Positions 7,216-55,671 of a stretch of 64,000 bases of DNA are shown here, in pieces. The stretch is from positions 20,407 to 84,406 of the forward strand of contig CAZZDD010000001.1 of the NCBI GenBank assembly GCA_964652185.1, read 5' to 3'. A program made the translations under genes and the position numbers. Position 1 is the first letter of the stretch; each line of letters begins with the position of its first letter. Source of the stretch: an uncultured Candidatus Peribacteria bacterium. Its GTDB lineage: Bacteria; Patescibacteriota; Gracilibacteria; Peribacterales; Peribacteraceae. Under the pieces are notes generated by a model. That model worked only from the letters and a program-made list of their open reading frames with translations, was not told the origin of the DNA and made no database searches.

Positions 7216-8064
7216 ATGATACCCCGATTTTTAGTAGTATTACAAATTGTTACAATGTTGGTTGGACTGCGAACCATGCCAACAAGCGCCGCCGATCTGT
7301 GCCGATTGCCCGATGTTGTGTTTCTGGGTGAGGGTGCCGGCACATACACCTTGCCCAACGGCTACGATACATTGATCGTGAAGCAGTTCAATCCGTTTCG
7401 CTTTGGCGCTGTTAGTGCCAACAGTGTCACCTTCACAGAAGCAAACAATGGCGGCTACGTCGCTCGTGCGTGGGCATCCACGGGTACAAGCGTGCCATCA
7501 GCGCACTTTGGCGAAAAGGTGTCACTAGGTACGATTGACGCAGGTATGCTAGTGCGAACAATGATGATCGATGATGACAACGATAATCGACTTACCACCA
7601 TCGTTAACGAGTCGGAGAGTGTCTACACGGTATTGCAGCCTGCGATGGTACAGTTGATCGAATTCACCACAACACATAAGGGCGAATACTTCATTGATAG
7701 CGCTGACAGTATTACGTTTTGGCCGGTATGTGCTCTACCATTCGTGCCTGACGATCCAACCGTGTTCCCGACCCACACGGCGACGGCCACACCATTGCCA
7801 ACCGGTACACCCACACCGCCATCAACAGTTACGCCTAGTGCAACGCCAACGGTTACACTGACGCCGACGCCGACATTTACGCCTAGCGCCACAGCCACGC
7901 AGACGGCAATGAATACGCCGACGGTGACCACTACAGCAACGGCTACACCTTCGCCAACATCCACGCCAACGTTAGGTGTGCCGACGGGACTGACGCCATT
8001 TCCGCAGGTGACGTTGCGCCCGGAGTGGCAGATGTATATATGGTTGCCGGATGTGCGGCGATAA
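7216..8064 (+). CDS. secreted/membrane-anchored protein with C-terminal Pro/Thr-rich low-complexity region
   Basis: Hydrophobic N-terminal signal-like segment (FLVVLQIVTMLVGL...SAA). About 80 aa of PT repeats (TPTPPSTVTPSATPTVTLTPTPTFTPSATAT...). AAAGGA upstream of the ATG. Confidence 0.7.
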   Translation: MIPRFLVVLQIVTMLVGLRTMPTSAADLCRLPDVVFLGEGAGTYTLPNGYDTLIVKQFNPFRFGAVSANSVTFTEANNGGYVARAWASTGTSVPSAHFGEKVSLGTIDAGMLVRTMMIDDDNDNRLTTIVNESESVYTVLQPAMVQLIEFTTTHKGEYFIDSADSITFWPVCALPFVPDDPTVFPTHTATATPLPTGTPTPPSTVTPSATPTVTLTPTPTFTPSATATQTAMNTPTVTTTATATPSPTSTPTLGVPTGLTPFPQVTLRPEWQMYIWLPDVRR

Positions 8065-8262: not shown

Positions 8263-8904
8263 TCAGCCATTGTTGCTTGCTCCGCAGACGCCGATCTCGA
8301 TTGCCCAATAGTAGGTATACGGGCTCCCGTCTAGCTTGACATAGGCGATCCCGATGTCGGTCTGATTGCGGAAGTGATCGGTCTGTCCGAATATGTGTCG
8401 GGCGTGCTTTGGCGACCGTGCCAACGAATCGAATGCGTCTTTGACGTACTGAGCGCCGGCGCTCAACGACTCAACGTCGTTGCCATTCGGCGCATACCAT
8501 GTCGGCAATCTACACCCTGACGCAATCGCCACGGCGTTGGGGCATACGCCTTTGGGATCGCAGTGCGCAAAATAGCCAAGCTTGGCTAGCGAATCCGCAC
8601 GTACCTGCGCAGCTTGCACCAACGCAGGATTACAGCGTAACACCTTGCGCTGTTGGCGTGAGTCGGCAGATAGCAGGCGTGCGAACTCTGCCGCTTGTGG
8701 TGTGCGGTAGCATGATGGTTTCGGTGTGGATGTCGGTGTAGGGCGTGGGGATGGGGTAGCCCGTGGCTGACCTTGCAATTGCGGAAGGTAGACGCGATAC
8801 CGATACACGGTCACGCCTGGGAGTGGTGACACGGCGTAATTTTGGGATGGGCTGCATCCTGCGAGGATAGCGACAATGAGTAGGGGGATAAGTCGCTGAT
8901 ACAT
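8263..8904 (-). CDS. lipoprotein with CAP/SCP (YkwD-like) domain
   Basis: Lipobox LLIVAILAGC|S. PT-rich linker. CAP-like core (NPALVQAAQVRADSLAKLGYFAHCDP ... SLARSPKHARHIFG ... DIGIAYV). Confidence 0.75.
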   Translation of the reverse strand: MYQRLIPLLIVAILAGCSPSQNYAVSPLPGVTVYRYRVYLPQLQGQPRATPSPRPTPTSTPKPSCYRTPQAAEFARLLSADSRQQRKVLRCNPALVQAAQVRADSLAKLGYFAHCDPKGVCPNAVAIASGCRLPTWYAPNGNDVESLSAGAQYVKDAFDSLARSPKHARHIFGQTDHFRNQTDIGIAYVKLDGSPYTYYWAIEIGVCGASNNG

Positions 8905-16400: not shown

Positions 16401-18442
16401 GGCGTAATGGCGCTTGCCGGTATTACCGACGTGACGAGGTTGTTACTGCTATTGATGGCGGTGTAAGCGCGCCCTGCGCCGGTAACTTGGTTGGCTGTGG
16501 TACGAAAATAAGTGCTACCATTTGGCACATCATCAAGATCATCGGCTACAGCAAGCGCTCCGGCATCAGACAGACTGCCGATGCCGGAACCGCCTGTGAT
16601 CACAATATCGCCTTCAATGGCTAGCGTTGAACCATTCCAGGACAAGCGCTTATCAGTGTCGTCCACGCCGATCCAAACATTGGTGCCATTCGCATCTATG
16701 TTGACCTTCTGCGTACCGCTGCTGTACAGCTGCAATGGCACGTTGTTAAGCCGAACCGCATTATTACTGATGCGGAGATAGCTGTCATCATCGGTGACAC
16801 CATTGCCAGCATATAGCCCGTACTCATTAGCTACCGACCAAATGCCGTAAAGATTACCAAGGCGAGATCGCAACGTGACATTGCGCGGGTGCGTCTCCCA
16901 GGTGACGATCTGCGCGTATGGCGAGTTGGCACCATACAGGCCGTCGATAGCATTGACCTCATAGTAGCCATTACCGCTTGTGCCATAATCCAGCACAATG
17001 GCATCCTCCAACACCGTAGTGCCCGATGTCATCGCGCCGGCATTCGGACTAGCCGAACGTGTGAACGTGTAGCGCTGTGATTTAGTTGCGCTATCAAATC
17101 CGCTTGTGCCGTAAGAAGTATCGAGAACAACCGTTCCCCAGCAGTCGCTAATATCAAGCCCGCCGCCGGCACGAGAAAACTTACGAAGGCGAACATAGTC
17201 ACCATTGACAAATACAGCCATGCCGGTAGCACTTGGCAGATCGCGCACCGTCAACGTGGTTGTACCACCCGCAGCTGGCGCTGTGAATGTGCTATAGATC
17301 ATCGTCACCGATTTGGTGATGATCTGCCCGCCTGCCAACGCTTGCTCCAAATCAGCGATAAATGATTTGGCGTGCATCTCATCCACGAACAGGTAGCGGA
17401 AATCGCCTTGCCCGTCGTAGGTTGCACGCCAACCGGTCAACTGGCTAGTGTAGTTGTCTGACTGCAACGATACACCGCTTGTAACTTTGACAAGATTACT
17501 AGTCGGATCCAGCATGATATCGTCAGCCGGTGCCAACGTAAGATCGCCCGTCGCCGTGGTTACCAGTGGCGTGATCAGACTAGTATCAGCACGTACACTG
17601 ACCGTTGCTCGTACGTCGCCAACTGCGTCAATTCGATACGATGGCGTGATATCGCCAAAACCGACATTACCTGTCTCGGTAATCGTTATCCGTTCGTAAG
17701 TGGAACGAAAATCGGTGTCACTGAGATCTGTAAACGTGGTTGTCGAAACAATTGTGTAAAAGGCGAGTTGACCAGGGAACCGTTCAATGATGGCGACGGA
17801 ATCAGATGACGCGCTTGTCTTTGTCCAGTCGGTGCCATCAAAGGACAGATCTGCATTGCGGGACATGATGATCGACCCGCGCATATTCGTAGGCGAGTAG
17901 TTGCCGACGCTGTTGAGTTGAATCGAGCCTGCGGTTCCACTAGCGTTATTGATTTGTACACCAGCGCCCGCTGGCAAAATCGTGAGTGCACCGCTAGCCG
18001 TATCGATTAGTGGTGTGGTGATCTTCGTGGTAGCGACTAGTTTTGGCAGCGTCAGGAAGCCGCTCGTGTCGCTCTTGAGAATCTTTGATGTCGCACCAGG
18101 CGCGCTTGATGGCGTGAGAATGCCAAGCGTGTTGGTTGCGGACAGCCCAACAATGTCCAGTGCTGAACCGGTGACGCTGTGATCGGATACAGACGTAATA
18201 CTGTGCAGGCGCAGGTGGTGAGCATCAGGATCGGACGCGTGCGTAGTTATGGCGCTACTAATGTCAGTTGCGACCCACGGCGCTTGGGATCGGTCTAGCG
18301 TGCCTGTGTGATAATCACCATAGAGATCATGAGCGACCAATGCGCCAGACGCATTGACATTCGTTCGTGTTGAGTTCGCAATGAGATCGATAATGAATGG
18401 CTGTAATTTTTGATAAATCTCAAACGCTGAAACCTTGCTCAT
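10475..18442 (-). CDS. giant tail fibre / receptor-binding protein (2655 aa)
   Basis: ATG at 18442 in ATGA overlap with upstream stop. Contains an internal LamG/concanavalin-like module (about 13170-13765). Also has YadA-head-like NNAxG repeats (about 14330-14700) and two ~57-aa tandem repeats (about 14940-15340). WYA(G/D)xDGxLYAG modules are repeated. C-terminal S74 intramolecular chaperone domain. Confidence 0.9.
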   Translation of the reverse strand: MSKVSAFEIYQKLQPFIIDLIANSTRTNVNASGALVAHDLYGDYHTGTLDRSQAPWVATDISSAITTHASDPDAHHLRLHSITSVSDHSVTGSALDIVGLSATNTLGILTPSSAPGATSKILKSDTSGFLTLPKLVATTKITTPLIDTASGALTILPAGAGVQINNASGTAGSIQLNSVGNYSPTNMRGSIIMSRNADLSFDGTDWTKTSASSDSVAIIERFPGQLAFYTIVSTTTFTDLSDTDFRSTYERITITETGNVGFGDITPSYRIDAVGDVRATVSVRADTSLITPLVTTATGDLTLAPADDIMLDPTSNLVKVTSGVSLQSDNYTSQLTGWRATYDGQGDFRYLFVDEMHAKSFIADLEQALAGGQIITKSVTMIYSTFTAPAAGGTTTLTVRDLPSATGMAVFVNGDYVRLRKFSRAGGGLDISDCWGTVVLDTSYGTSGFDSATKSQRYTFTRSASPNAGAMTSGTTVLEDAIVLDYGTSGNGYYEVNAIDGLYGANSPYAQIVTWETHPRNVTLRSRLGNLYGIWSVANEYGLYAGNGVTDDDSYLRISNNAVRLNNVPLQLYSSGTQKVNIDANGTNVWIGVDDTDKRLSWNGSTLAIEGDIVITGGSGIGSLSDAGALAVADDLDDVPNGSTYFRTTANQVTGAGRAYTAINSSNNLVTSVIPASAITPSGAGLYLGSNYMGYYDSSVWKTYIASNGDFKMAGSDGTNYLQWDASANKLQGVGGGVEQWYADATDGKLYAAAGSIGMDSTGLWLRMNSSSTWATANAITFRNATTWSTVDAVLSTRTVTSSRYLNLLLDPDTIPVGLEVIASPASQRVNITHDLTVEGDLELFAGDIVLATSATVDGVDVSAFKTAYDSHNHSGVYLPLSGGTLTNTLTTRDIAAHADSTDDIGTASVYFDNIYVRSIHTDTIVGTPSYAHSHDSTYVNVTGDTMSDQLTMSFDNFQMIVLDRTANANVDSTFYVGVSYITGVSDDFAFFGKSNGLQVYNDGTVKVDANTVWHAGNDGSGSGLDADTVDSIQGASIVQTSRTVTAGSGLTGGGALSSNITISHSDTSSQASVNNSGSTFIQDVTLDTYGHVTALVSADASTALSGVFVPVARTVTAGTGLTGGGALSANITISHDDTSSQASVNNSAYNFIQDVTLDGFGHVTALVSVDAATMLSGYVKTDGTTTGATSQKQVFTNGVDVATTYYVAATQAIYVPGGSFLGTYYFGDGGASLTYGSGNDGRYITAVGLGALKFNTTGNKNNAMGTNAMRNNTTGQINNAMGYNALTENTTGSYNNAFGSNAVDQNTTGSYNSGIGFQALHSLISGDYNTAIGYRAGWSTTGSSNIFIGANAGYSETGSNKLYIDNTNTASPLIYGDFSSDYITINGDLDVTDTFDVTGAATFGNNATITGVLSVAANTDSTHIIGRSRIDYAAAADSATFAHYDYSTSASAALAQFSSGATQLQAAASQYIDLAIDGSAIWTVNEERLNPQSSMVIDVGDYNRMVRTLFAAELYVQTLVAQEVISTIGGQILVAPTTKLMADVTGESGGYGTSALYTNLISYWPLDEASGSRADSVLANNLTDNNTVTSTTGKQSNAAVFTKANSEYLSTADNAALSAGDVDFYVSCWIYPTLNDGSVMTIVSKGSSTQKAWSVNISWADSKVYFDAYTPAGALTYIGTTGTVTTNTWYFVEAWHDATANTITIALNGTSASTAFPSGGVRDDNGLFMVGASESGAVTRYYQGRIDELGFWKNYIPNSTERTWLRNSTTGRTHDEVYDYEHVDGATTIDVEHNELASGDYVVLKTAPGGVAQFEVMKIDSSYTDLGIGNGYRYTVIRGVDGSFVNNWYTGDAVASLGGAVGEGYIDLAAVSTVHNHIGPTMAIYSRTATTSWDDMDPTVAVGNLRSFVDYASDKFGIALGNDLTLTPTSGFKGLTADATDGIRLFNVDLSAYNSTVQTASLSTTGNLKLGTNVSGIDTTTFEVNTGTGVVRLGPYASGKGHLRWDGTNLDFNIYNATFIRLASTGAATFEGVINLGDDGGIYQGSGTFASPTTGLKIWKDGGLGTGRIAAYNTGTVQWYAGSDGRLYAGAGAVKLDASGITVTATNDKFTVDTSGNIKAGTNVSSVTTTSLDFVASDGKLRIGPLVASKANLYFDGTDLNLQVNATKVAVLGSGGTMLIGREGTNLPNLYFDGSSLHLRKDTTNLITLDNSGNSYFAGVMTIGTSGEIRQGSGTIGSNFTGLRIWRDSSIGRIAGYNSGSASPQWYADTDGKLYAGGANVKLDSSGITLLADTTSTHGSQNDASAITFARSNGTLVGRLTSYYISAGTTYGIDMYARSPNQEISTASFGAEQTGTIYGGGAAGAPRVVASVTASGASSTLKLYANEGIYLYRSGDATADLAIAGSTMTVNVNVDVNGYDIYDVASLAIGTSSTSHLLEVAGSLGNVQVETQGAVLNFTRGGANYIKASSSSGTLSFITNALSNSVANASIYCDASQQVGIKGATPSYALDVNGSTHASSFPTSSDARFKENLRPITGTLDKFAALTAYNFTWTKNYSAYDQFCDKAGDPVRQLGFLAQDVAEQFPEVITRWQHNGRDGVVTKDAYSVDYARMVPLLAVAIGEVRMEARTETEVLRQRIVELESEVKMMKARLN
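10478..10870 (-). other. peptidase S74 / intramolecular chaperone auto-processing domain of the fibre
   Basis: SSDARFKENL...GFLAQDVAEQFPE...VDYARMVPLLAVAIGE followed by a terminal coiled coil. The S-D-x-R-x-K hallmark is present. Confidence 0.8.
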
Positions 18443-25198: not shown

Positions 25199-25772
25199 TT
25201 CTTCGCTTTCGCTCTTGCCGCGTTTGCCGCTTTTGCCTGGTCGCGCTTGTTGCGCTCATGCTCCCATTTGCGCCGTGCGTATATTCGTGTGGCTAGCTCG
25301 TCAATGTAGTCGGCAGGTTGAGCGTGAACTTGTTCGTGCGTCCATCCGTGCTCTTCTGCCAACGTGACCTCCACGGGATACCGACTCGGCATAGGCATCG
25401 AGACGCCATGCATGATAGCGCGCTCGAATGCCTGCTCTATTCTTTTTTTTCGTCGGCGTCCAACTCCTCATTGGATTCGCCCATGAGCGCAAGCATTGCC
25501 TGTGCAGCGTCCTGATCTAGCGCTTCAATGTTTTCAGGCGTGCAGGCAAAGCCCTCAAACTCTGGACCCTCCCAGCTCACCATGCGCGCCTTGAAGATCT
25601 CCAATGACAATTCGGCAAAGTCAATCGATGCTTCCTGCGTGAACGGATCGACCTTGCTGCACTTACTGATCAGCTTTTGGCGCTTGCCGTAACTTAGCTT
25701 GCGGAACGTGATCTTGTGTTCGTCATCAAGCGCCTTGGTGACGTGATCGGATGTGGTGAAAAACTTAGACAT
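25195..25772 (-). CDS. tail assembly chaperone G-T-like fusion made by -1 programmed frameshift
   Basis: The -1 frame entered at A AAA AAA (25449..25443) is open. It is the same frame as the 72-aa ORF 25195..25413 (codon phase checked by hand). The product ends 1 nt into the TMP start region. Confidence 0.75.
25437..25772 (-). CDS. tail assembly chaperone (G-like, 111 aa)
   Basis: Position between the major tail and TMP genes. Ends ...DEKKE* across an A8 run. Confidence 0.8.
   Translation of the reverse strand: MSKFFTTSDHVTKALDDEHKITFRKLSYGKRQKLISKCSKVDPFTQEASIDFAELSLEIFKARMVSWEGPEFEGFACTPENIEALDQDAAQAMLALMGESNEELDADEKKE
25443..25449 (-). other. -1 ribosomal frameshift slippery heptamer A AAA AAA
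   Basis: Zero frame reads GAC GAA AAA AAA GAA TAG. X XXY YYZ phasing is satisfied. Confidence 0.75.
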
Positions 25773-26770
25773 TAATGACCCCCGCTGCCATAGGTGGCAA
25801 CGCCATTCGTGAGTGCTGCCGTAAACGATAAACTATCCGTGGAACTCGCAACCGCGTGACCGTCGAGCGTAACCGTGGTGTTGCCGTCACTGTTGGTGTA
25901 GTCGCCAACCGTGTCGTACTTGCCGGCCCAATCGAGATTGAGAATGCGTGTGGAATCTGTGATGGCTAGGCGGAAGAGTAATGTACTGTTGGCACGATAG
26001 TTGTCACGCTGATCAGCAACGACCGAACTGTCTTCAAGTTCTAGCGTGACGGAGTAAGTGATCTCTGGCTGCGTCCACTTGTAGTCAACATAGTAGAGCT
26101 GCCCATCGCCAACGGGTACAACCTTTAGGCCAGTTGTTACGTTGATTTTTGCCGACATCAATACACCGGTCATCTGTGTCGTACCGATAGTGCCGCCCGA
26201 CGCATCGATATAAAGCTTGGTGTGAGGGAATAGTGCCTCGTTTACACTCGGTGCCGACAACGAGGTTGTCTTGGCAGTTTGTTGCATCTGCCGACATATC
26301 CAATTACTAGAAACCATCCATGATTCGCCGAAAGAACCCGACAATTCAAACGATTCGACAAATCCGAATTCGCCCTCATATTGATCTTCAGCCACGACGG
26401 ATGAGCCAGTCTCAATGGTGTAAGTCTTAATCGTGTTGACCGTTGTGCCACCGTATGGGTAGTTGTAAGTGCGCACGTACGGACCCGTTCCCGATGGCGT
26501 AGCAGTCTTAATGCCAGCCTCGAAAATATGTGCCACTTGCTCGTAGGTGAGTGGCGTTGATGGTTGCGCCCATGCAGCTTGAATCTTGCCGTCATAGCTT
26601 CTCTCTGGCTGCATGAAAGTTCCAATATTTTCCGAAACTATGGCACGTTCGCGCGTGTCTTCGAGCATGGAGAATTCTCCACGCCATAAAGTGGTGGCTG
26701 GAACCGCCGTTCCCTTGGTCGATTCACGTCCTAACTGCGTATAGGTCATACTAAATGGTGAGTATGCCAA
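25772..26770 (-). CDS. major tail (tube) protein
   Basis: Position directly upstream of the G/G-T chaperones. Likely TTG start at 26770, 7 nt after AGAGGT. The track ATG at 26806 lies inside the upstream terminator stem. Confidence 0.7.
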   Translation of the reverse strand: MAYSPFSMTYTQLGRESTKGTAVPATTLWRGEFSMLEDTRERAIVSENIGTFMQPERSYDGKIQAAWAQPSTPLTYEQVAHIFEAGIKTATPSGTGPYVRTYNYPYGGTTVNTIKTYTIETGSSVVAEDQYEGEFGFVESFELSGSFGESWMVSSNWICRQMQQTAKTTSLSAPSVNEALFPHTKLYIDASGGTIGTTQMTGVLMSAKINVTTGLKVVPVGDGQLYYVDYKWTQPEITYSVTLELEDSSVVADQRDNYRANSTLLFRLAITDSTRILNLDWAGKYDTVGDYTNSDGNTTVTLDGHAVASSTDSLSFTAALTNGVATYGSGGH

Positions 26771-26793: not shown

Positions 26794-26839
26794 AAAAAAA
26801 GGGCATCCAACCAACACTTTCTAGTGTCAGTGGATGCCC
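26794..26839 (-). terminator. strong hairpin + U7 immediately upstream of the major tail gene
   Basis: Minus strand: GGGCATCCA..ACACT AGAA AGTGT..TGGATGCCC followed by TTTTTTT (26800..26794). Confidence 0.7.
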
Positions 26840-26873
26840 TCGCGTAATCGCAACAGCCGATATTTACTTGTGT
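26836..26873 (-). promoter_or_regulatory. conserved box, copy B (minus strand CACAAGTAAATATCGGCTGTTGCGATTACGCGAGGGC)
   Basis: 34 of 37 nt identical to 32561-32597. Both copies abut the 5' side of a hairpin-U7. Confidence 0.6.
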
Positions 26874-29567: not shown

Positions 29568-32498
29568 CTAGAGAGTAATGTTGTACGAAACCGCACTGGC
29601 TTCCGTATCCCGGTAGACCATACCGACACGCATGGTGCCAACAATCACAGTGCTATCACTGATAGCATCGCGTTGCACTTCAAACATCCAGCGCCGCTTG
29701 TAGCCAAGACGCCATTGATCGAAACGCACACCAAGAATAGAGCCCGTGGTGTTATTGCTGGCGGTATCAAGATCGACCTTGCCGGCAGTGTTCGCCTTCA
29801 GACCATATGTGGCATCTTGATTTGCACGGTGCATGTTTGCCGAGGCGAACACGCGTGCGCCGTAGATGCTGGTCAGCATACCCTCTTCAATGGTCGGTCG
29901 AATGAACACGTCACGAGTTTTAATCTCGGCAAGTTCAAGCGACTTCCAGTGAGTGTGCATATCGGTAATGAATGCAACTTTGGATTTATCAGCAGCATTG
30001 CGCCCACCCAAGCCCATGAGCTTAAGAGTTTCCAGATAATCCTCAAGCGTCAACGTGCCGGCGCTACGAGCATTGGCTGTATTCGTCACCAACGCCAACT
30101 TGCGAAACCCATCAAACAGCATGAACGCTTCAGTGCCGGCAGGTGTGCCGCCGATGTCGTTGATGTTCGTGGTGGCACCCGCTGCGGTGTCGCCGTCAAG
30201 GATGACGTGCTCCATCACTTCGGCAGCTTCCGCCACAATGTCACGGCGCAACTCGGACACCCACGGGATGAACGAATCTTCCTCAAGTTCGCCACTGTAG
30301 TTGATGGCTGCACCAAGCTTAGACACCGACAGGGTTTGCTTGGCAGTGTTCAGGCGGCTTGTGGTTTGCGTCGGGGTGACGCGGCCAGGATTGCTATCCT
30401 GCGCACTCGCCTGAGCAACCTTGTAGAAGGTTGGGCTTGTGCCAATGACGGGGATGATAATCGATTCGCTGCCTTGGGGAATTTCCACGGTTGGAATCTG
30501 CGCAGCAATAGGAGCGGCCAAACGAACCTTATCCCACAGCTGGGTGCTGTAGGTAACGCCAACCCACTCGTCACCATAGCTGGCAAGCGTGGACTGGTTT
30601 AACTCGTTCGCCTTCATCGACATGCCTGCGCCCTTCATTGCAGCCTTAGATGCAATGTATTCGCGCTCTTCGTCGCCTGTGGTTTCGGCAATGCGCACAG
30701 CCATCGCTTTGATCAGATCTTCGCTTGGCCCGGTGCTCATGCGACCACCGACACTAACGCCCTTTGCGCTGTTCAATACACCGGCGGCAAAAGCAAGGTC
30801 GTCAATACCAAGCGTGTCATACTTCCACAGGTTGCCGAACTTGGCTTGGTACGGCGCTTCTCCACCACCCGGCAAGCGTCGCGCTTCGGCAGCTTCGGCT
30901 TTTGCGGCTTCGATTGCAGCCTTGGCGGCGGTACGCTCTTCCTCGAATTGCTTTTCGAGTTCGACACGCACGGCTTCAGCGGAACTCTTGGCAGCGTTTT
31001 TTACTTCATTCTGTCGATCCTGTTCAGCCTTGACAGCGGCATCGCGTTGCGCGAAAACTTCCGCCACAGACTGAGCAACAAGATCCTTGACGTTCACTTC
31101 GTCCATTGTCTTATTCTCCATTACTTCAGATCGTTGTTGGTTGTCCGTCTCGCTTGCTTTTGCCGATGCCCGCCCTCGCAATGGTGTACTGCCATCACCT
31201 ATAGCTGCATCCTCTGGCGCTTGCTCAGAGTCCGGTTCTATGTCATCAGGCAGAGTAAGCCCCGCCTGTGTCCATACTGCTTTCATCACCGGCAATGCCA
31301 CGGCGTATTGATTCGCCGGTTGCCGGTTGCCTACTGCATCAAAGATACTCAGTTCCGCGACGGGCCAATGCGTGATGTGCCCGTCTTTGCCCTTGCGAAC
31401 TAGGTGCGTAATTGAGCCACTTGACGCACGTGCCACACCCTGCTTGGCAGCTTCCCACACGCGCTTGGCGTAGGCGCTTGCCTTATCCAGTACCACACGA
31501 TACCAATGTCCTTTGTTATCAACGTGGCTATAACTTGCTGTGCCAATGTATGCCGGCTCACTGGACGGACGGTTATTTTCGTCGTAGCCGTGGAAGTAAA
31601 TTGCCGGCACAGCCTTGAATTGTTCGGTGTACGTTTTCGTCTGCTCGCTGAAATACTCACCGTCAGAATCACGTCCGGCATTGTGCCCACCGAATGGGAC
31701 GCCCAGCACATCAAGTGCCCACACATCGCCATCTGATTTGATAGCACGCACAAGCCCGTAAATCACCGGCTGCGCTTCGGCTGTGGATTTCTCTGCGCTC
31801 TTGACGTTGATCTCGATCTCAACCTTGCCGTTATCCTCTTCGCAATCTTCTTCCTCACCCATGCCCATCAGCGGGAAGTCAAGCCGTTCACCGGCCCAAA
31901 TCAAGCTGACTTTTTCAACTCGCATCGGCGTTGCCGGAATCATCAGATCGGGCATCGGCATTGCCGCCGGTAGGTAAGCCACAGTGATATGTGGCGTAAA
32001 CCCGTGGTCGGATTCTTCGATATATTCGTCAACTTCTTCGCATAACTCCGCACGAAGGTCCGCCAACTGTGGGCTGTCGTAGTTCAGGAACAGCGGGTAT
32101 TGCCCTTCGCTTTCACTGAATCGTCCGTAGCCGTTGATCGTGCCTTGCAGTGGGCTGTAGCACTTGGCGCACTCGGTAATGGCGGCAACGATGTCGTTCT
32201 TGCTACCTGCAATAGTCGCCACGTCATCAGCCAAGTAAAGCAACGTCACGTGGTCACATTCGCCGGTTGCCATTTCGCCGACAAGACCACGCACGGTGCC
32301 AATCTGTTCGGGCGTCAGCATGAGCGCAATCATTGCGCCTTGGTTCGCCATCGGATCGATCTGCACTGCCTTAGTTTGAATCGTGGTCGTCATTGCTTCC
32401 GGCTCCATATCATTCACCGTGGCCACAATGCTCGTTGCAGCACTACGGATGTCGTTCAGTCGTTGCCGGTCATTTCGATTATTGCGTGCACCTGGCAT
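29568..32498 (-). CDS. polyprotein: 2H phosphoesterase - prohead protease - scaffold (delta-like coiled coil) - HK97-fold major capsid protein (976 aa)
   Basis: Single uninterrupted ORF. HxT motifs at H83 and H170. Protease-like GVPFGGHNAGRDSDGEYFS...AIYFHGYD...SSGSITH. AEK-rich coiled coil. C-terminal HK97-type MCP (LNQSTLASYGDEWVG...KQTLSVSKLGAAINYSGELEEDS...ILDGDT...FEVQRD). Confidence 0.85.
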   Translation of the reverse strand: MPGARNNRNDRQRLNDIRSAATSIVATVNDMEPEAMTTTIQTKAVQIDPMANQGAMIALMLTPEQIGTVRGLVGEMATGECDHVTLLYLADDVATIAGSKNDIVAAITECAKCYSPLQGTINGYGRFSESEGQYPLFLNYDSPQLADLRAELCEEVDEYIEESDHGFTPHITVAYLPAAMPMPDLMIPATPMRVEKVSLIWAGERLDFPLMGMGEEEDCEEDNGKVEIEINVKSAEKSTAEAQPVIYGLVRAIKSDGDVWALDVLGVPFGGHNAGRDSDGEYFSEQTKTYTEQFKAVPAIYFHGYDENNRPSSEPAYIGTASYSHVDNKGHWYRVVLDKASAYAKRVWEAAKQGVARASSGSITHLVRKGKDGHITHWPVAELSIFDAVGNRQPANQYAVALPVMKAVWTQAGLTLPDDIEPDSEQAPEDAAIGDGSTPLRGRASAKASETDNQQRSEVMENKTMDEVNVKDLVAQSVAEVFAQRDAAVKAEQDRQNEVKNAAKSSAEAVRVELEKQFEEERTAAKAAIEAAKAEAAEARRLPGGGEAPYQAKFGNLWKYDTLGIDDLAFAAGVLNSAKGVSVGGRMSTGPSEDLIKAMAVRIAETTGDEEREYIASKAAMKGAGMSMKANELNQSTLASYGDEWVGVTYSTQLWDKVRLAAPIAAQIPTVEIPQGSESIIIPVIGTSPTFYKVAQASAQDSNPGRVTPTQTTSRLNTAKQTLSVSKLGAAINYSGELEEDSFIPWVSELRRDIVAEAAEVMEHVILDGDTAAGATTNINDIGGTPAGTEAFMLFDGFRKLALVTNTANARSAGTLTLEDYLETLKLMGLGGRNAADKSKVAFITDMHTHWKSLELAEIKTRDVFIRPTIEEGMLTSIYGARVFASANMHRANQDATYGLKANTAGKVDLDTASNNTTGSILGVRFDQWRLGYKRRWMFEVQRDAISDSTVIVGTMRVGMVYRDTEASAVSYNITL
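31860..32340 (-). other. 2H phosphoesterase (LigT/CPDase-like) domain within the capsid polyprotein
   Basis: GAMIALML...ECDHVTLLYL (motif 1) and FTPHITVAYL (motif 2), 87 aa apart, each H-x-T followed by hydrophobics. C-terminal VSLIWAGERLDFPL strand. Confidence 0.7.
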
Positions 32499-32520
32499 GT
32501 CAGCCCCGAAAAATTGGAAT

Positions 32521-32564
32521 AAAAAAAGGGCGAGACAGACAACCTTTCGGTCATCGTCTCGCCC
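32521..32564 (-). terminator. strong hairpin + U7, 22 nt upstream of the capsid polyprotein ATG
   Basis: Minus strand: GGGCGAGAC..GACC GAAA GGTT..GTCTCGCCC then TTTTTTT (32527..32521). Confidence 0.7.
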
Positions 32565-32597
32565 TCGCGTAATCGCAACAGCAAATATTTAGTTGTG
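32561..32597 (-). promoter_or_regulatory. conserved box, copy A (minus strand CACAACTAAATATTTGCTGTTGCGATTACGCGAGGGC)
   Basis: 34 of 37 nt identical to 26836-26873. Same position relative to a hairpin-U7. Confidence 0.6.
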
Positions 32598-32759
32598 CGT
32601 CAATCCCAAGTAAAGCCTTGAGTCAGTCGCAAAAGTTCGTTTGCGTTTCTCTATGTAGCGCCCCACATAAACCGAGCACTTAACATGCCTTGACGCATTC
32701 ACATTCCTAGTGGCATTGGGTGCAACGTTCTTTCACCATCACCATTTAGAACGATTCTA

Positions 32760-32788
32760 ATTATATCACTAGCTTACCGAATCGTCAA
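32760..32788 (-). promoter_or_regulatory. sigma70-type promoter TTGACG-17 nt-TATAAT with TG extension
   Basis: Minus strand: TTGACG (32788..32783), 17-nt spacer ending TGA, TATAAT (32765..32760). Lies in the 413-nt non-coding gap upstream of the capsid gene. Confidence 0.65.
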
Positions 32789-33760: not shown

Positions 33761-34126
33761 TCATCTTACTCGCTTCTCCTTCGTCCGTGGCAACTCGATA
33801 AACAATAGGTCGCCATTTGTAAATTTTATCTTGTATACAATTGTATCAGCGTCAGGATTGGCGTGGATACTACTTTGCGTGCTTTTTATCACAGCACCAC
33901 TTTCAAGCTTTTCCAGAAACTCACGCAAATTATCTATATTGATTGTTCGTTTCTGTGGACCTTGGATCGATTGCTCTCCCCTCAGTGCCCTTCTTGCATC
34001 ATAGCCACGTCTAGTCATTTCGCCTTCAATCTCGATCAGCGTCATTCGATCAATGGGAATGCGCCATGCGACTTTGTAAGAAGCCATTAAATCGTCAAGG
34101 CTCTGTTCGGACAATGGAATTTTCAT
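33761..34126 (-). CDS. hypothetical protein (121 aa), AT-rich island
   Basis: ATGA coupling. Starts MKIPLSEQSL and ends LPRTKEKRVR. Confidence 0.5.
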   Translation of the reverse strand: MKIPLSEQSLDDLMASYKVAWRIPIDRMTLIEIEGEMTRRGYDARRALRGEQSIQGPQKRTINIDNLREFLEKLESGAVIKSTQSSIHANPDADTIVYKIKFTNGDLLFIELPRTKEKRVR

Positions 34127-34320
34127 CGCACCCGCTTCTCTTTCGTTGTTGGCAATCCGAACGCATTTTCAAGTGCAGTCAATCCACGGATGCGTTCTTC
34201 GCGCTCACGAATAGTGATATAGTTTTCCAGGCGCAGAACGCGCATAATGAGATCGTTGTATTGCTGCGATGATAGTTGGATTATAGCATTGTCCGGCAAT
34301 GGTTTCAAACTATCGCTCAT
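34123..34320 (-). CDS. hypothetical helical protein (65 aa), AT-rich island
   Basis: ATGA coupling. Ends LPTTKEKRVR, the same tail as the next gene. Confidence 0.5.
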   Translation of the reverse strand: MSDSLKPLPDNAIIQLSSQQYNDLIMRVLRLENYITIREREERIRGLTALENAFGLPTTKEKRVR

Positions 34321-53965: not shown

Positions 53966-54168
53966 TACAGTTCCACCCAATCACACGCTGCCTTAGTCAC
54001 GCCATCAACCACAATCAGATCATCATTGCTCAGTAGTTCGGGATCGTCTTCCTCGTCCCATCCCCACGTTGGATTAAAATCTTGATTGGCATATCGAAAC
54101 CGCACGTAGACAACACTGCCATGTTCTTCGCCACCAAATCTAACCGTGTAGAATCCGTCGCTTGGCAT
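53965..54168 (-). CDS. hypothetical protein (67 aa)
   Basis: ATG 54168 overlaps the endolysin stop (TGATG). Confidence 0.45.
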   Translation of the reverse strand: MPSDGFYTVRFGGEEHGSVVYVRFRYANQDFNPTWGWDEEDDPELLSNDDLIVVDGVTKAACDWVEL

Positions 54169-54992
54169 CACGCCCCCACCAATTGCCGAATCAACTGAGC
54201 ATAATGACTAGCATTTGCGCTGCCATTGTAGGTCTTCGCAAAGCCTAGATAATCGCCAATCTTCAATGCTGCCAATGCCCCACTGCTATCCATCCACCGG
54301 AACATAGCTTCAATCTGCACGTCTTCGCCCTCACTGAACGCCAACGCCATTGCCGGCGCTGACACGTAGCCAAGCATTTTATGATGGAATCCCATTAGTT
54401 GAGGCGCACCCATACTGCAACTCTGCCAAGCAGATTCGGCATCGATCATTGTGGCTAGACTAAGCGCTTGCCACTCACCATTTTGCTTGCCGTGATAGCC
54501 TACCCAATCGGCTCGCGGTGAAGTACGCAGTCTGTGTTGGTTGCCGTCCCACACTGGTGAGCCAACAGCGAACAATCTGTCGAAGCCGTCGCTTGTGGCA
54601 CGAACTCGAAACACGTGTGGCTCAAAGCGAATCACAAGCCGTCCATCCTCAAAGCCACGCCCGCCCGATTCAACCTGAATCACAGCCTTGACTTTCGCCA
54701 CATCTACGCCGTAAGCCGCCGACAGTCGATCAATCAATGGCGGTGTCTCACCAAGGACAATCAGTAATGGACGCCCGCTTACGGCCTCAGCGCACCAGCC
54801 AACTTTGTCGCCACTCTGCACACCCCACCATCGCAAGCCGTCCGCGTCAACAGGACCATCAACCACACGCAGCGGATCGCCGGTGTAGGACAGTTCGCCA
54901 ATCTTGCCGTAGCTGCGACCTGGACCACTGCGAATATTTACGATTAATGGCGTGCTGACATTTACGCCGATGGTGATTGGTTCTAGTCCCAT
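54168..54992 (-). CDS. endolysin: SH3b domain + N-acetylmuramidase (DUF3380/PF11860-type)
   Basis: VNIRSGPGRSYGKIGEL...GLRWWGVQSGDKVGWCAE (SH3b). AVIQVESGGRGF...IRFEPHVF...SCSMGAPQLMGFHHKMLGY...FAKTYNG (muramidase). ATG 54992. Confidence 0.85.
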   Translation of the reverse strand: MGLEPITIGVNVSTPLIVNIRSGPGRSYGKIGELSYTGDPLRVVDGPVDADGLRWWGVQSGDKVGWCAEAVSGRPLLIVLGETPPLIDRLSAAYGVDVAKVKAVIQVESGGRGFEDGRLVIRFEPHVFRVRATSDGFDRLFAVGSPVWDGNQHRLRTSPRADWVGYHGKQNGEWQALSLATMIDAESAWQSCSMGAPQLMGFHHKMLGYVSAPAMALAFSEGEDVQIEAMFRWMDSSGALAALKIGDYLGFAKTYNGSANASHYAQLIRQLVGA

Positions 54993-55183
54993 ATGATCGC
55001 CCCGCCACGTTGCAACGAAAGAAAGCGATCCCAGTCCCAAGAATAAACCGCATCTTGTGGATTTAGTCCCGGCACAAGCGGACATATCTGCCCGATCATC
55101 CACTCAGATAGCGCAGCCTGAAGAGACTCGTCTGTCTCGCTGATTCGGATATAGTTGATGCCATCGTGATTGTGAATTTGCAT
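54983..55183 (-). CDS. hypothetical protein (66 aa), first ORF after the structured leader
   Basis: ORF with a weak SD. No TM segment, so not an obvious holin. Confidence 0.4.
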   Translation of the reverse strand: MQIHNHDGINYIRISETDESLQAALSEWMIGQICPLVPGLNPQDAVYSWDWDRFLSLQRGGAIIWD

Positions 55184-55341
55184 GAATTTCTAATTCCGTG
55201 ATATGAGCCGGTCCCGCCCCGGCTATAGATCGGCCCTGCCCTCACGGGTTCGGACTCTGCTGCGCAGATGGCGTCTCACCGATTACTCTACTAGAGGGAC
55301 TATCACAGCGTGTCATCTCGCCACGCCGCCACATCACCAAT

Positions 55342-55391
55342 AAAAAAAACGGGCGCAGAAACTAACACGAATGTGCTAATCTCTGCGCCCG
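55342..55391 (-). terminator. strong rho-independent terminator (hairpin + U8)
   Basis: Minus strand: CGGGCGCAGA..UAGCAC AUUC GUGUUA..UCUGCGCCCG followed by TTTTTTTT (55349..55342). Confidence 0.8.
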
Positions 55392-55434
55392 TTGACAGTA
55401 CAGTTACGCTGTTGCTATTTTACTGAACGATGAA

Positions 55435-55626
55435 TCAGTTCAGTTTTATTTTTCGTTTCGGTGGCTGGAAGTCTACAATTGCGGTGTCTTGATTCGGTAG
55501 AATGCTGATCACCACAGTGCATCCCTCTCGTTTGGCGATCATGAGTAACGCAGCTAAGTTGTCATTAAGCTGATCAGTAATCCGCTCAATAATTATTCTT
55601 GCTTTTGCCTCTGTCGCCTCTGTCAT
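55435..55626 (-). CDS. small early protein (63 aa)
   Basis: GGTGGTG upstream of the ATG. Bracketed by two promoters upstream and a terminator downstream. No motif. Confidence 0.6.
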   Translation of the reverse strand: MTEATEAKARIIIERITDQLNDNLAALLMIAKREGCTVVISILPNQDTAIVDFQPPKRKIKLN

Positions 55627-55662: not shown

Positions 55663-55671
55663 ATTATATCA
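55663..55671 (-). promoter_or_regulatory. extended -10 promoter element TGATATAAT
   Basis: Minus strand: TG-A-TATAAT (55671..55663), 37 nt upstream of the ATG at 55626. No good -35. Confidence 0.5.

Follow-up and report, generated by a model that had tools for sequence, protein, structure and literature searches.

Two predicted terminators in front of structural genes

Two structural genes on the minus strand of the window (the whole stretch of 64,000 nucleotides that was analyzed) are each preceded by a short conserved sequence running into a predicted intrinsic terminator (Table 1). The protein encoded behind the first of these modules has an N-terminal Arg/Asn-rich segment, a 2H-phosphoesterase domain (PF13563) and a C-terminal HK97-type capsid domain. 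It had been called a capsid polyprotein; the capsid part of this label stands, and we correct the rest to a 2H-phosphoesterase/HK97-type capsid fusion. The gene behind the second module had been labeled a major tail gene. Its product has no family match of its own, and we name the gene a tail tube gene by synteny only: it is followed at its 3′ side by ORFs of 111 and 72 aa and then by the tape measure protein (PF10145).

Table 1. Features of the two modules and their surroundings, in coordinates of the window
Feature	Positions	Strand	Remarks
Sigma-70 promoter TTGACG-17-TGaTATAAT (predicted)	32760..32788	−	11/12 consensus positions and extended −10 TG; 17-bp spacing
Leader, ~160 nt, promoter to module	32598..32759	−	Window-specific
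AT-rich −10-like motif AACTAAATAT	32585..32594	−	5′ part of the originally described box
Type A box core GCTGTTGCGATTACGCGAGGGC, 22 nt	32561..32582	−	GCUGUU single strand, P1, linker A, first 4 nt of P2 5′ arm
Mini-hairpin P1, UGCG-AUUA-CGCG	32577..32566	−	
Intrinsic terminator P2 + U7 (predicted)	32521..32564	−	Bipartite GC-rich hairpin 32564..32528, GAAA loop; T7 32527..32521
Capsid fusion gene, 976 aa	29568..32498	−	Behind first module
−10-like motif AAGTAAATAT, second module	26860..26869	−	
Second type A box core	26836..26857	−	22/22 nt identical to first; P1 26852..26841
Second intrinsic terminator (predicted)	26794..26839	−	Hairpin 26839..26801 and U7 26800..26794
Tail tube gene	25772..26770	−	TTG start after AAGAGG; assigned by synteny
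p65, 65 aa	34123..34320	−	From ORF clustering; one long helix and basic C-terminal tail (predicted)

The promoter originally placed ahead of the capsid gene was confirmed as a sequence match. Two sites with at least 11 of the 12 consensus positions plus the TG of an extended −10 element occur in the window; the mean in 200 dinucleotide shuffles was 0.055, and no shuffle had two. The leader that follows this promoter has no similarity to those of relatives, and a tRNA search of it returned nothing. We rejected it as a structured RNA or riboswitch, as it is not notably structured (z = −1.8) and not conserved.

The full box (32597..32561) is identical in 34 of 37 nt to the stretch 26873..26836, which occupies the same place relative to the second hairpin and its U7 tract. 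Here the original prediction was right on position and identity; it had missed the mini-hairpin P1, and the similarity extends over about 40 nt. The core sequence occurs exactly twice in the window and in none of 100 shuffles, even with three mismatches allowed; a covariance model run over the 64 kb returned only the two copies, at 82 and 76 bits.

The GAAA-loop hairpin opened by the last four nucleotides of the box, the U7 tract and the ATG behind it were found as described. The capsid-side hairpin, with the stem GGGC...GCCC, has a predicted energy of about −27 to −30 kcal/mol when folded alone; for the 86-nt module the value is −35.7 kcal/mol (z = −6.0). The tail-side hairpin (about −26 kcal/mol; z = −6.5 for the 88-nt module) has a stem of unlike sequence. 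From the end of the T7 tract to the start codon we counted 22 nt on the capsid side and 23 nt on the tail side. Only three hairpins of this strength with a U tract of at least seven are present on the minus strand of the window; the third (55392..55335) is without a box.

A third predicted promoter–terminator pair lies 5′ of the endolysin gene. An element X located 3′ of the third terminator is common to the window and to one relative (L007); its stability is not unusual.

A module conserved among relatives

A search for the box in related phages recovered the module in metagenomic relatives; together with those of the window there are 28 distinct copies, with two types of box. From 5′ to 3′ each copy is made up of an AT-rich −10-like motif, the box, and an intrinsic terminator consisting of a hairpin, P2, and a tract of 5–9 U residues. 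The box itself takes up 22–30 nt: a conserved single-stranded stretch, a mini-hairpin P1 of 3–4 bp and the base of the P2 5′ arm. Nearly all 28 copies have a −10-like hexamer 2–11 nt 5′ of the box. At capsid-side copies the AT-rich motif is kept across both box types, and the tail-side motifs of type B are degenerate.

In each copy the 3′ end of the module is at most 25 nt from the start codon of a capsid (head-block) or tail-tube gene; this spacing holds in the window and in L003, L007, L008, L010–L013, L016–L023, L026, L031, L047 and L048. One additional copy is situated 5′ of a different tail gene. In the mosaic phage L053 the module precedes a non-homologous head block. Within the structural modules of relatives from the A and B clades each strong terminator bears a box, and in L012 a tandem second hairpin retains a partial one. 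What was seen in the window is a conserved module and not a one-off; it is real at the coordinates of Table 1 and goes far beyond chance.

Two box types and their constraints

The type A box has the form GCUGUUGCGAUUACGCGAGGGC and the type B box the form ACGUCUAACCG-P1-CCAGCGGCG; the two sequences are unrelated. All copies in one genome are always of the same type. Type also tracks clade, tail genes being closer to each other within type A.

P1 was predicted independently in both types and is 100% paired, with compensatory and G–U changes. In the seven type A sequences three of the four pairs vary (CG/UA, GU/GC and CG/UG), and the loop is AUUA, AUCA or AUAA. In type B the stem is GUC/GAC in capsid copies and GCCC/GGGC in tail copies, with AU-rich loops whose length varies from 4 to 6 nt. 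Such changes, together with the variable loops, favor an RNA hairpin over a duplex DNA operator; the covariation comprises few independent events in a stem of only 3–4 bp.

P2 shows compensatory pairs across relatives as well. In all 28 copies P2 and the following U5–9 tract have the predicted geometry of a strong canonical intrinsic terminator: the hairpin energies are −22.6 to −32 kcal/mol, the loops are of the GNRA or UUCG kind, and a GC base adjoins the U tract. The part of the box that lies in the P2 5′ arm is GAGGGC in type A and CCAGCGGCGU in type B. One-sided changes at the base of the type B hairpin are all in the 3′ arm and the 5′ arm, GCGGCGU, is invariant; thus, the sequence-specific constraint extends into the 5′ arm of the terminator. 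The paralogous copies of the window have unrelated stems next to boxes that share 34 of 37 nt, and the orthologous tail copies of the window and L007 differ in their stems while sharing 21 of 22 nt of the box. In these alignments constraint on the box by far exceeds that on the adjoining hairpin. We found no alternative (antiterminator) RNA pairing that would compete with P2.

Promoters, leaders and insertion slots

On the capsid side, 11 of the 16 unique copies, including all 10 of type B, have an upstream near-consensus extended −10 site (TGnTATAAT or TATACT), with its TG 30–290 nt upstream as counted from a point just 5′ of the box. Copies on the tail-tube side never have a strong upstream sigma-70 promoter. 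The distance from promoter to box varies between about 20 and about 290 nt. That from promoter to motif has a roughly 20-fold spread (about 10 to 290 nt): it is about 160 nt in the window and about 10–30 nt in L003, L022 and L011, where the motif is located at ~+4 to +17 from the predicted start. The predicted sigma-70 promoter is a variable accessory, outside the conserved core of the module. Usually the capsid-side order of putative promoter, leader, terminator and gene is the layout of an attenuator.

Leaders of the relatives consist of other sequence or, in some, of tRNAs. In L031 the AU-rich motif comes right after tRNA 3′ ends; in L013, L016 and L020 it comes after tRNA-like T-arms. The intervals 5′ of both modules are insertion slots in which accessory or mobile genes (small ORFs, tRNAs, HNH genes) bring strong promoters of their own. 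Capsid genes mostly lack a Shine–Dalgarno sequence and have a conserved U-rich leader, UUUUU(C)GACUAUG; good Shine–Dalgarno sequences are present at the tail copies.

Search for a partner protein

It had been claimed that no antiterminator gene was recognizable, and our profile searches agree: no known antiterminator, sigma factor or RNA polymerase family was found among about 85 ORFs, with ~31 kb of the genome outside the window. There was no PHROG or Pfam match to an N-family or Q-family protein (Q-lambda, Q21, Q82), no NusG/KOW domain in Pfam scans, no CAT/PRD domain in the window ORFs and no small upstream ORF of the arginine-rich-motif (ARM) type. We considered a 2663-aa protein as a virion RNA polymerase, such as would use N4-like hairpin promoters; it turned out to be a tail fibre with an endosialidase-chaperone domain. 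The box is also a poor candidate for a promoter of a single-subunit RNA polymerase: P1 stems and loop lengths vary, and the searches returned no gene for such a polymerase.

By tblastn we detected no locally encoded protein co-varying with the type of box. ORF clustering yielded one family, p65, that is present at all six type A loci and at none of the type B loci; no other family has such a distribution. We regard p65 as a candidate for a box partner specific to type A. This link is weak, since box type goes with clade as well, and the co-occurrence of p65 and p79 may be explained by clade-specific gene content and physical linkage.

Resemblance to known antitermination systems

The RAT element of the BglG/SacY/LicT systems is an imperfect hairpin of ~29 nt whose formation excludes the terminator. 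Here, as there, a sequence-specific RNA element is situated just 5′ of a terminator and overlaps its 5′ arm; each terminator has one element, action would be local and non-processive, and the order is promoter, short leader, terminator, gene. The differences are that in the predicted folds P1 forms alongside P2, with no overlap between them, and that the context is a phage structural operon.

In lambda, N works processively from a single nut site in each operon, and boxB has a stem of 5 bp and a GNRA-like pentaloop. Like nut, the module has in nascent RNA a short single-stranded motif and, after it, a small hairpin, both 5′ of terminators. It also shares with nut variants specific to phage lineages (as in lambda, P22 and 21), and the protein to be expected would be small and poorly recognizable by homology. 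The GCUGUU of type A and the CGUCUAAC of type B bear only a loose resemblance to boxA, the NusB–NusE consensus being GCUCUUUA-like. P1 differs in having 3–4 bp and AU-rich loops of 4–6 nt, and the box, unlike nut, abuts each terminator, promoter-less tail copies included.

LoaP, a NusG paralogue, works with a small leader hairpin and intrinsic terminators in the dfn and mln operons (PMC12691694). Likeness to that system includes a small hairpin 5′ of a leader terminator, the same hairpin in two gene clusters of one genome, and a dedicated protein that binds the hairpin and relieves termination, as our model would have it. However, the hairpin of LoaP carries a UNCG loop, stands apart from the terminator and supports processive action; the loops of P1 are not UNCG, and the conserved element here also takes in the terminator 5′ arm and a stretch of single strand.

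With the Q/qut arrangement at PR′-tR′, and with BrrG, a Q21-like protein that controls the capsid operon of the Bartonella gene transfer agent (10.1101/2024.11.20.624540), the window shares a predicted strong constitutive sigma-70 promoter and a leader terminator before capsid or late genes, a −10-like element 3′ of the promoter, and structural genes that would be gated by antitermination. Q, however, is a processive factor that binds promoter DNA, whereas the element described here adjoins the terminator, has covariation of RNA type, is at a variable distance from the promoter and is present without one on the tail side.

In the jumbo phage 201phi2-1, terminators were mapped by ONT-cappable-seq immediately 3′ of promoters of the major capsid gene, and the authors considered them timing devices that imply antitermination (PMC11512511). 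This phage is unrelated, has its own RNA polymerases and no sequence similarity to the window, and no conserved box was described in it. The put element of HK022 and canT of Tn916, processive antiterminators made of RNA only, are likewise cis-acting structured RNAs 5′ of terminators in mobile elements, and those terminators serve as insulators; these RNAs are larger, have several hairpins and exert a constitutive long-range effect in cis (PMC11658703). A put-type element has two adjacent stem-loops, is ~70 nt long, protein-free and separate from the terminators, whereas the module has one small hairpin and the terminator itself. A terminator to which such an RNA-only element is fused would be pointless.

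Proposed mechanism and alternatives

The original prediction had offered three readings, and the one that fits best is a terminator opened by antitermination with the box as a signal: it would account for the constraint on the box, the covarying P1 and the matched box types. Not all of it is upheld, as neither the promoter nor the ~160-nt leader is conserved; further, the fact that every terminator is boxed, with the box reaching the 5′ arm, points to local site-specific action rather than to processivity of the lambda Q or N kind. We tentatively read the module as a conditional terminator that depends on a factor (antitermination or attenuation) and acts locally, and we give this reading a little less than an even chance. 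Its logic has experimental precedents in the capsid promoters and terminators of 201phi2-1, in the control of a capsid operon by BrrG and in the LoaP hairpin with its leader terminators.

On the capsid side, host RNA polymerase would enter from the strong constitutive sigma-70 promoter; on the tail side it would arrive from the upstream structural genes. It would transcribe the AT-rich motif, the box with P1 and then P2 with U7, and, with the factor absent, would stop 22–23 nt short of the start codon. This would insulate the capsid and tail-tube genes from early transcription of the upstream accessory ORFs. Later, a lineage-specific factor could recognize the box in nascent RNA (the single strand, P1 and the first nucleotides of the 5′ arm) at a moment when the box is just outside the polymerase, and would block the formation or the action of P2, with read-through into the capsid or tail-tube gene as the outcome. 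The action would probably be local, resembling attenuation of the RAT/BglG or LoaP-hairpin kind, and not processive from a single loading site. Most likely, the capsid and tail-tube genes would be kept off until a phage factor permits read-through. What we observe is the anatomy, its conservation, the covariation of P1 and P2, the genome-matched box types and the position relative to genes; termination, its relief, recognition at the level of RNA and the identity of the factor (candidate p65, for type A) are what we infer.

One could speculate further that the module is the RNA half of a phage antitermination system not described before. A small helical protein, p65 in type A and a different one in type B, would bind the box and open the terminators so tagged, tag and protein forming interchangeable specificity pairs like the immunity types of N and nut, with local instead of processive action. 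We consider this more specific version possible, if rather doubtful.

Processive antitermination of Q or N type, with the motif as a sigma-70-dependent pause and the box as a qut- or nut-like loading site for a modified polymerase resistant to this and later terminators, seems to us unlikely. The box loosely resembles boxA followed by a boxB-like hairpin; in L003, L022 and L011 the motif is placed as at lambdoid PR′, and the endolysin promoter–terminator pair is similar to lambda PR′-tR′. Moreover, 82Q is able to engage promoter-distal sigma-dependent pauses (PMC4914094). However, a single loading site would suffice for such a mechanism, yet every terminator is boxed, including the tail-tube copy 5.7 kb downstream, and the terminator at the presumed start of the late operon is without a box. 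The roughly 20-fold variation in promoter–motif distance, the absence of a promoter on the tail side, the lack of a Q or N family match and a P1 stem and loop unlike boxB speak against it too. A late promoter, proposed originally as one of the −10-only kind, would have the motif respond to an activator or to a phage sigma factor, with transcription starting at the first nucleotide of the box and P1–P2 protecting the 5′ end. The −10-like hexamer before nearly all copies is equally predicted by such a model; no promoter besides it is present at the tail-side copies, and yet the tube protein must be abundant; lineage-specific sequence 3′ of a promoter recalls phage-specific promoters. But the motif is not reused: in the 64 kb its exact form occurs only at the two modules, and sites with one mismatch are not enriched (9 versus 4.8 expected), so that we rejected a genome-wide late-promoter role for AASTAAATAT. 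A conserved −35 element is missing, the tail-side motifs of type B are degenerate, variable P1 stems and loop lengths fit a promoter in duplex DNA poorly, and no sigma or RNA polymerase gene was found among the ORFs searched. Transcripts started there would still meet the hairpin with its U7–9, so that control of read-through would be required all the same. For these late promoters, too, the probability appears low.

Processing or stabilization of RNA, the last of the original readings, would mean that a host enzyme of RNase E type cuts in the AU-rich motif, that P1–P2 protects the new 5′ end of the capsid or tail mRNA and that the U-rich tract aids ribosome loading. In some relatives the motif follows tRNA 3′ ends or tRNA-like T-arms, where 3′ processing cuts are expected, and capsid genes are mostly without Shine–Dalgarno sequences behind a conserved U-rich leader. 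Such a role could be an added one; as the sole explanation we find it distinctly unlikely. It would leave unexplained the U tract and the perfect terminator geometry (a GC base abutting U7–9) at tail copies that do have Shine–Dalgarno sequences, the invariance of the 5′ arm and, if host enzymes alone act, the two lineage-specific boxes. Decidedly improbable, in our view, is simple insulation by terminators whose partial read-through is constitutive; the box would then be a termination-efficiency or 3′-end element, or be conserved for reasons that have nothing to do with read-through. We know of no terminators that need a sequence-specific upstream element of 25 nt. Insulation of structural genes would be useful in itself, as the modules are 3′ of slots for accessory and mobile genes with strong promoters; T1 of Tn916 is an insulator terminator of this sort (PMC11658703). 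Against it, strong stops would stand right before the two most abundant virion proteins, with 15–25 nt to the start codon leaving no room for a promoter, and the genome-matched box types would be unaccounted for. We assign a very small probability to genes for small trans-acting RNAs of 60–70 nt (box as seed, P1, and terminator with U-tail), comparable to StxS, the terminated PR′ leader RNA that acts in trans (PMC7547250). The layout does resemble small RNAs of the Hfq type, with a conserved 5′ end, a hairpin and a terminator with U-tail. However, nothing in the window is complementary to the box except its own opposite strand, the strict limit of 25 nt to two specific start codons would be unexplained, and the promoter required is unproven.

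If the conditional terminator that we favor is switchable, a phage could first delay and then boost the synthesis of the two virion proteins that it makes in greatest amount; a structural operon could then harbor mobile accessory genes and strong promoters of host type without harm. The two unrelated box types would be orthogonal pairs of terminator and anti-terminator, ~65–70 nt in size, for use in synthetic biology.

Occurrence in sequence collections

No Rfam family reached its gathering score with the module; the best was the DUF2800 RNA with 18.9 bits versus a gathering score of 60.2. The 28 sequences, absent from Rfam, make a new candidate class of cis-regulatory RNA for annotating genomes of uncultivated phages. 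Isolated phages gave no match at the DNA or protein level, and the phage lineage is uncultivated; scans of metagenome and genome collections with the capsid protein gave no match either. The exact 18-nt box was found among viral contigs in L001 and L002 only, both chance matches in GC-rich coding sequence. All three matches of the type B pattern in bacterial genomes were due to chance, and thus gave no prophage and no clue to the host. The strict type A pattern had no match in metagenomes; the degenerate one produced 18 chance matches in coding sequence and a single true match, in L031.

Two modules in the structural operon

The window comes from a siphovirus-type genome of 95 kb, for which no cultivated relative was found at the DNA or protein level. 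Structural genes, all on the minus strand, run from the small and large terminase through portal, MuF-like protein and a cluster of small unknown ORFs to the first module; then come a capsid protein of 976 aa (a fusion of a 2H-phosphoesterase with an HK97-type capsid domain), head-tail genes and the second module, followed by a gene assigned by synteny as tail tube gene, two small ORFs, a PF10145 tape measure protein and tail fibres.

Ahead of the capsid gene, the predicted array of promoter, leader, box, hairpin, U7 and ATG was present in full (32788..32498, minus strand); the second box, predicted before another hairpin-U7, was 34/37 nt identical to the first and was followed by T7 and a TTG start.

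Features of the two modules and the capsid promoter in the window
Feature	Position	Strand	Remark
Promoter TTGACG-17-TGaTATAAT	32788..32760	-	Window sequence, capsid side
Leader, ~160 nt	Between promoter and box	-	Window sequence, capsid side
Box CACAACTAAATATTTGCTGTTGCGATTACGCGAGGGC	32597..32561	-	Window sequence, capsid side
Bipartite hairpin, GAAA loop	32564..32528	-	Window sequence, capsid side
T7	32527..32521	-	Capsid ATG 22 nt further on, at 32498
Second box	26873..26836	-	Differs from first box at 3/37 positions
Second hairpin, unlike first	26839..26801	-	Then T7, 23 nt and TTG start at 26770

The observation of box and hairpin-U7 modules is real. The 22-nt box core occurs exactly twice in the window and never in 100 shuffles, even with 3 mismatches; a covariance model scan of the window returned only the two copies (82 and 76 bits). 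Terminator hairpin energies are ~-27 to -30 kcal/mol on the capsid side and -26 kcal/mol on the tail side, with module folding z-scores of -6.0 and -6.5, respectively; the minus strand of the 64-kb window has only three hairpins of comparable strength with at least seven U's. Promoters matching at least 11/12 positions plus TG number two in the window, whereas dinucleotide shuffles averaged 0.055.

The module in related phages

Syntenic loci of many capsid homologues (there are hundreds in metagenomes), enlarged by pattern scans, served as relatives. The module, whose box had been proposed as a query for related phages, is conserved: the window and relatives hold 28 distinct copies, each ending 15-25 nt 5′ of a start codon. 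The capsid gene is preceded by 16 of these and the tail tube gene by 10; where an intron-like insert splits the latter (L007, L008, L010), the copy lies 5′ of the true exon 1. In a mosaic phage (L053), one copy stands before a head block without similarity to the window's capsid gene.

From 5′ to 3′ the module consists of an AT-rich -10-like motif, the box 2-11 nt further on, a long GC-based hairpin (P2; loops GNRA or UUCG) and U5-9. Most capsid-side copies, whichever the box type, have AACTAAATAT as their -10-like motif; on the tail side it is more degenerate. Type A boxes (window, L007, L008, L031, L047, L053) read GCUGUU-[UGCG-AUUA-CGCG]-A-GGGC...; type B boxes (L003, L010-L013, L016-L023, L025-L027, L048, L049) read ACGUCUAACC-[G(U/C)C..loop..G(A/G)C]-CA-GCGGCGU.... 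The bracketed mini-hairpin, P1, was predicted by RNAalifold in each type separately and is 100% paired. In type A, 3/4 pairs vary with pairing kept (CG/UA, GU/GC, CG/UG); in type B the stem is GUC/GAC in capsid-side versus GCCC/GGGC in tail-side copies, with loops of 4-6 nt whose sequence is not fixed. Because of the G-U pairs and the variable stems and loops, these predictions point to an RNA hairpin on the module's own strand rather than a duplex operator or rigid promoter. At the type B P2 base all one-sided changes fall in the 3′ arm, and the 5′ arm GCGGCGU is invariant (19/19 sequences); thus the sequence-specific constraint spans a single-stranded stretch, P1 and the 5′ arm of the terminator.

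Paralogous copies in one genome have the box in common and different hairpin stems; across genomes, orthologous boxes are nearly unchanged and stems drift. Box type is uniform across all copies of any one genome. Such constraint and type matching are what a cis element should show if a lineage-specific trans factor recognises it; box type also follows overall tail-gene relatedness, so that part of the type pattern is clade history.

The remaining copy, a third type B module in L013 (20199-20268, +), lies after the tape measure gene and before the next tail gene, 26 nt 3′ of an extended -10 site TGGTATGAT; the module is therefore not strictly confined to capsid and tube genes. L012 carries a tandem pair of terminator hairpins before its capsid gene (7712-7812, +), the second with a type B box reduced to the 3′ half of P1, linker and P2 base (ATTGACCAGCGGCGT...). 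More distant relatives L014 (9934-9978, +) and L015 (9941-9985, +), with capsid identity of 61-63%, have a -30 kcal/mol hairpin and U5 just 5′ of the capsid start, whereas their tail tube gene has no such terminator in front of it. The hairpins have different upstream sequences and a common stem base, CGGCGCAA...UUGCGCCG; these may be additional types of box.

Promoters and leaders

The window has three TGnTATAAT sites (55671, 34288, 32768), all on the minus strand like the structural genes. Downstream of the 55671 and 32768 sites, a strong terminator comes within ~330 nt in each case; transcripts from 34288 would traverse ~1.8 kb of small ORFs and then reach the 32521 terminator. Among relatives and window, a TGnTATAAT/TGnTATACT promoter was found 30-290 nt 5′ of 11/16 unique capsid-side copies (including 10/10 of type B) and upstream of none of the tail-tube-side copies. 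The capsid side is thus laid out as a classic attenuator (promoter, leader, terminator, gene); the tail-side module is operon-internal. Leaders between promoter and module in relatives are unrelated to the window's or missing, the window-specific parts of the observation are not conserved there, and folding of the window leader gave no notable structure.

Capsid leaders of some relatives contain tRNAs: tRNA-Tyr and tRNA-Ala in L031 (1144-1311, -), a match in L007 (8152-8296, +) that at 145 nt may hold an insertion, and tRNA-like T-arms in L013, L016 and L020. The last tRNA 3′ end is ~10 nt 5′ of the AACTAAATAT motif.

Most capsid genes of the family lack a Shine-Dalgarno sequence; a U-rich leader, UUUUU(C)GACUAUG, is conserved right after the terminator U-tract (window 32499-32520 (-), L003, L008, L010-L013, L022, L047, L048), whereas GGAGG is present at tail tube genes. 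The pattern suggests Shine-Dalgarno-independent initiation for capsid, the most abundant protein.

Search for a partner factor

Searches of ~85 window ORFs with Pfam and PHROG profiles revealed no protein of the Q, N, NusG-like, sigma or RNA polymerase kinds, as the original prediction had it for antiterminators; a further ~31 kb of the phage genome lies beyond the window. In ORF clustering over all loci exactly one family, the 65-aa p65 (34320..34123 in the window), was present in 6/6 type A loci and no type B locus. Its gene lies 0.03-2.9 kb 5′ of the capsid-side module, and the protein is predicted to form a single long helix whose C-terminal tail is basic; the conserved tail coincides with a DNA-level junction cassette (Shine-Dalgarno plus ATGA stop/start overlap). 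In all type B loci, an ORF of 79 aa lies between the terminase and portal genes. As clade-specific gene content and physical linkage could give the same pattern, the two are only candidates for partners of the box.

Two adjacent small ORFs have a common C-terminal tail (34123-34160 and 33761-33798, -), ...LP(T/R)TKEKRVR, encoded by a repeated ~35-nt DNA cassette (TTGCCA..ACGAARGAGAAGCGRGTR.GATGA) that also supplies the next gene's Shine-Dalgarno and overlapping ATGA stop/start; the repeat resembles a cassette placed at junctions of accessory ORFs.

Possible mechanism

A P2 hairpin of this strength, abutting U7-9, should halt bacterial RNA polymerase before it reaches the start codon. Both genes behind the modules code for the virion proteins of highest abundance; given so strong a stop and no room for a promoter before the start codon, read-through must be provided for. 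We consider antitermination of some kind somewhat more likely than not. The box would be the signal for relief, lineage-specific, RNA-type and fused to each terminator, and a factor acting there would relieve termination locally, allowing transcription of the capsid or tail tube gene; for this local, factor-dependent form we would give slightly less than an even chance. Of the predicted antiterminator acting through the box, a local form is favoured, and the processive Q/N-type is disfavoured, each terminator having its own box. In its logic such a module would be closer to RAT/BglG and to the LoaP hairpin (PMC12691694) than to lambda N or Q, both processive from a single site.

A -10-only late promoter within the module, also predicted, is kept alive by the -10-like motif preceding nearly every box; however, the motif is not reused elsewhere in the window, and transcripts begun at it would still meet the terminator. 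RNA processing or stabilisation, the remaining alternative of the original prediction, is plausible as an additional role, the AU-rich motif following tRNA 3′ ends and capsid leaders being U-rich without Shine-Dalgarno, but would leave the terminator geometry and the two box types unexplained. Were the module an sRNA gene, a target might be expected, yet the window has none complementary to the box.

The arrangement has experimental precedents, on which control by the module would be a variation: phage 201phi2-1 has terminators immediately 3′ of capsid promoters (PMC11512511), and in another case a capsid operon that follows a constitutive sigma-70 promoter is gated by a Q21-like antiterminator (bioRxiv 10.1101/2024.11.20.624540). 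An insulating role would suit the terminators as well: the intervals upstream take up accessory ORFs, tRNAs and HNH genes with strong promoters of their own. Beyond the window, the finding extends to a candidate cis-regulatory element, new and well defined, of an uncultivated phage family.

Other features of the locus

A third promoter-terminator pair (-) consists of TGATATAAT at 55671..55663, a 63-aa ORF (55626..55435) and a terminator at 55392..55335 (hairpin of -33 kcal/mol plus T8), ~230 nt 5′ of an SH3-muramidase endolysin gene (54168-55103), the first in a long operon on the minus strand. The layout resembles lambda PR′-tR′, yet no box is present at this terminator. The noncoding stretch that follows (55190-55336, -) has two blocks, ATGTGGCGGCGTGGCGAGATGACACGCT and a hairpin AGCCGGGGYRGGACCGGC, in common with part of the L007 capsid leader (8330-8520); it had no Rfam match and its stability is not unusual (z = -0.4).

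The tail tube gene, uninterrupted in the window (25772-26770), is split in L007 (15444-15774), L008 (~17560-17906) and L010 (~17370-17688): exon 1 ends in ...TYTQLG and a stop, and the frame is back ~250 nt on at RESTAGTAV.... The insert resembles a small intron that lacks an ORF, with no Rfam call of a group I intron at gathering score; an HNH endonuclease gene lies just 5′ of it on the opposite strand.

The major capsid protein (29568-32498, -) is a tripartite fusion, with an Arg/Asn-rich N-terminus (MPGARNNRNDRQR...), a PF13563 2H-phosphoesterase (‘2′-5′ RNA ligase’) domain (residues ~83-199) and the C-terminal HK97-type capsid domain. An RNA-repair-type enzyme joined to a capsid/scaffold region is unusual; homologues come in versions of ~700 aa (without the 2H domain), ~976 aa and ~1100 aa (with an additional N-terminal domain).
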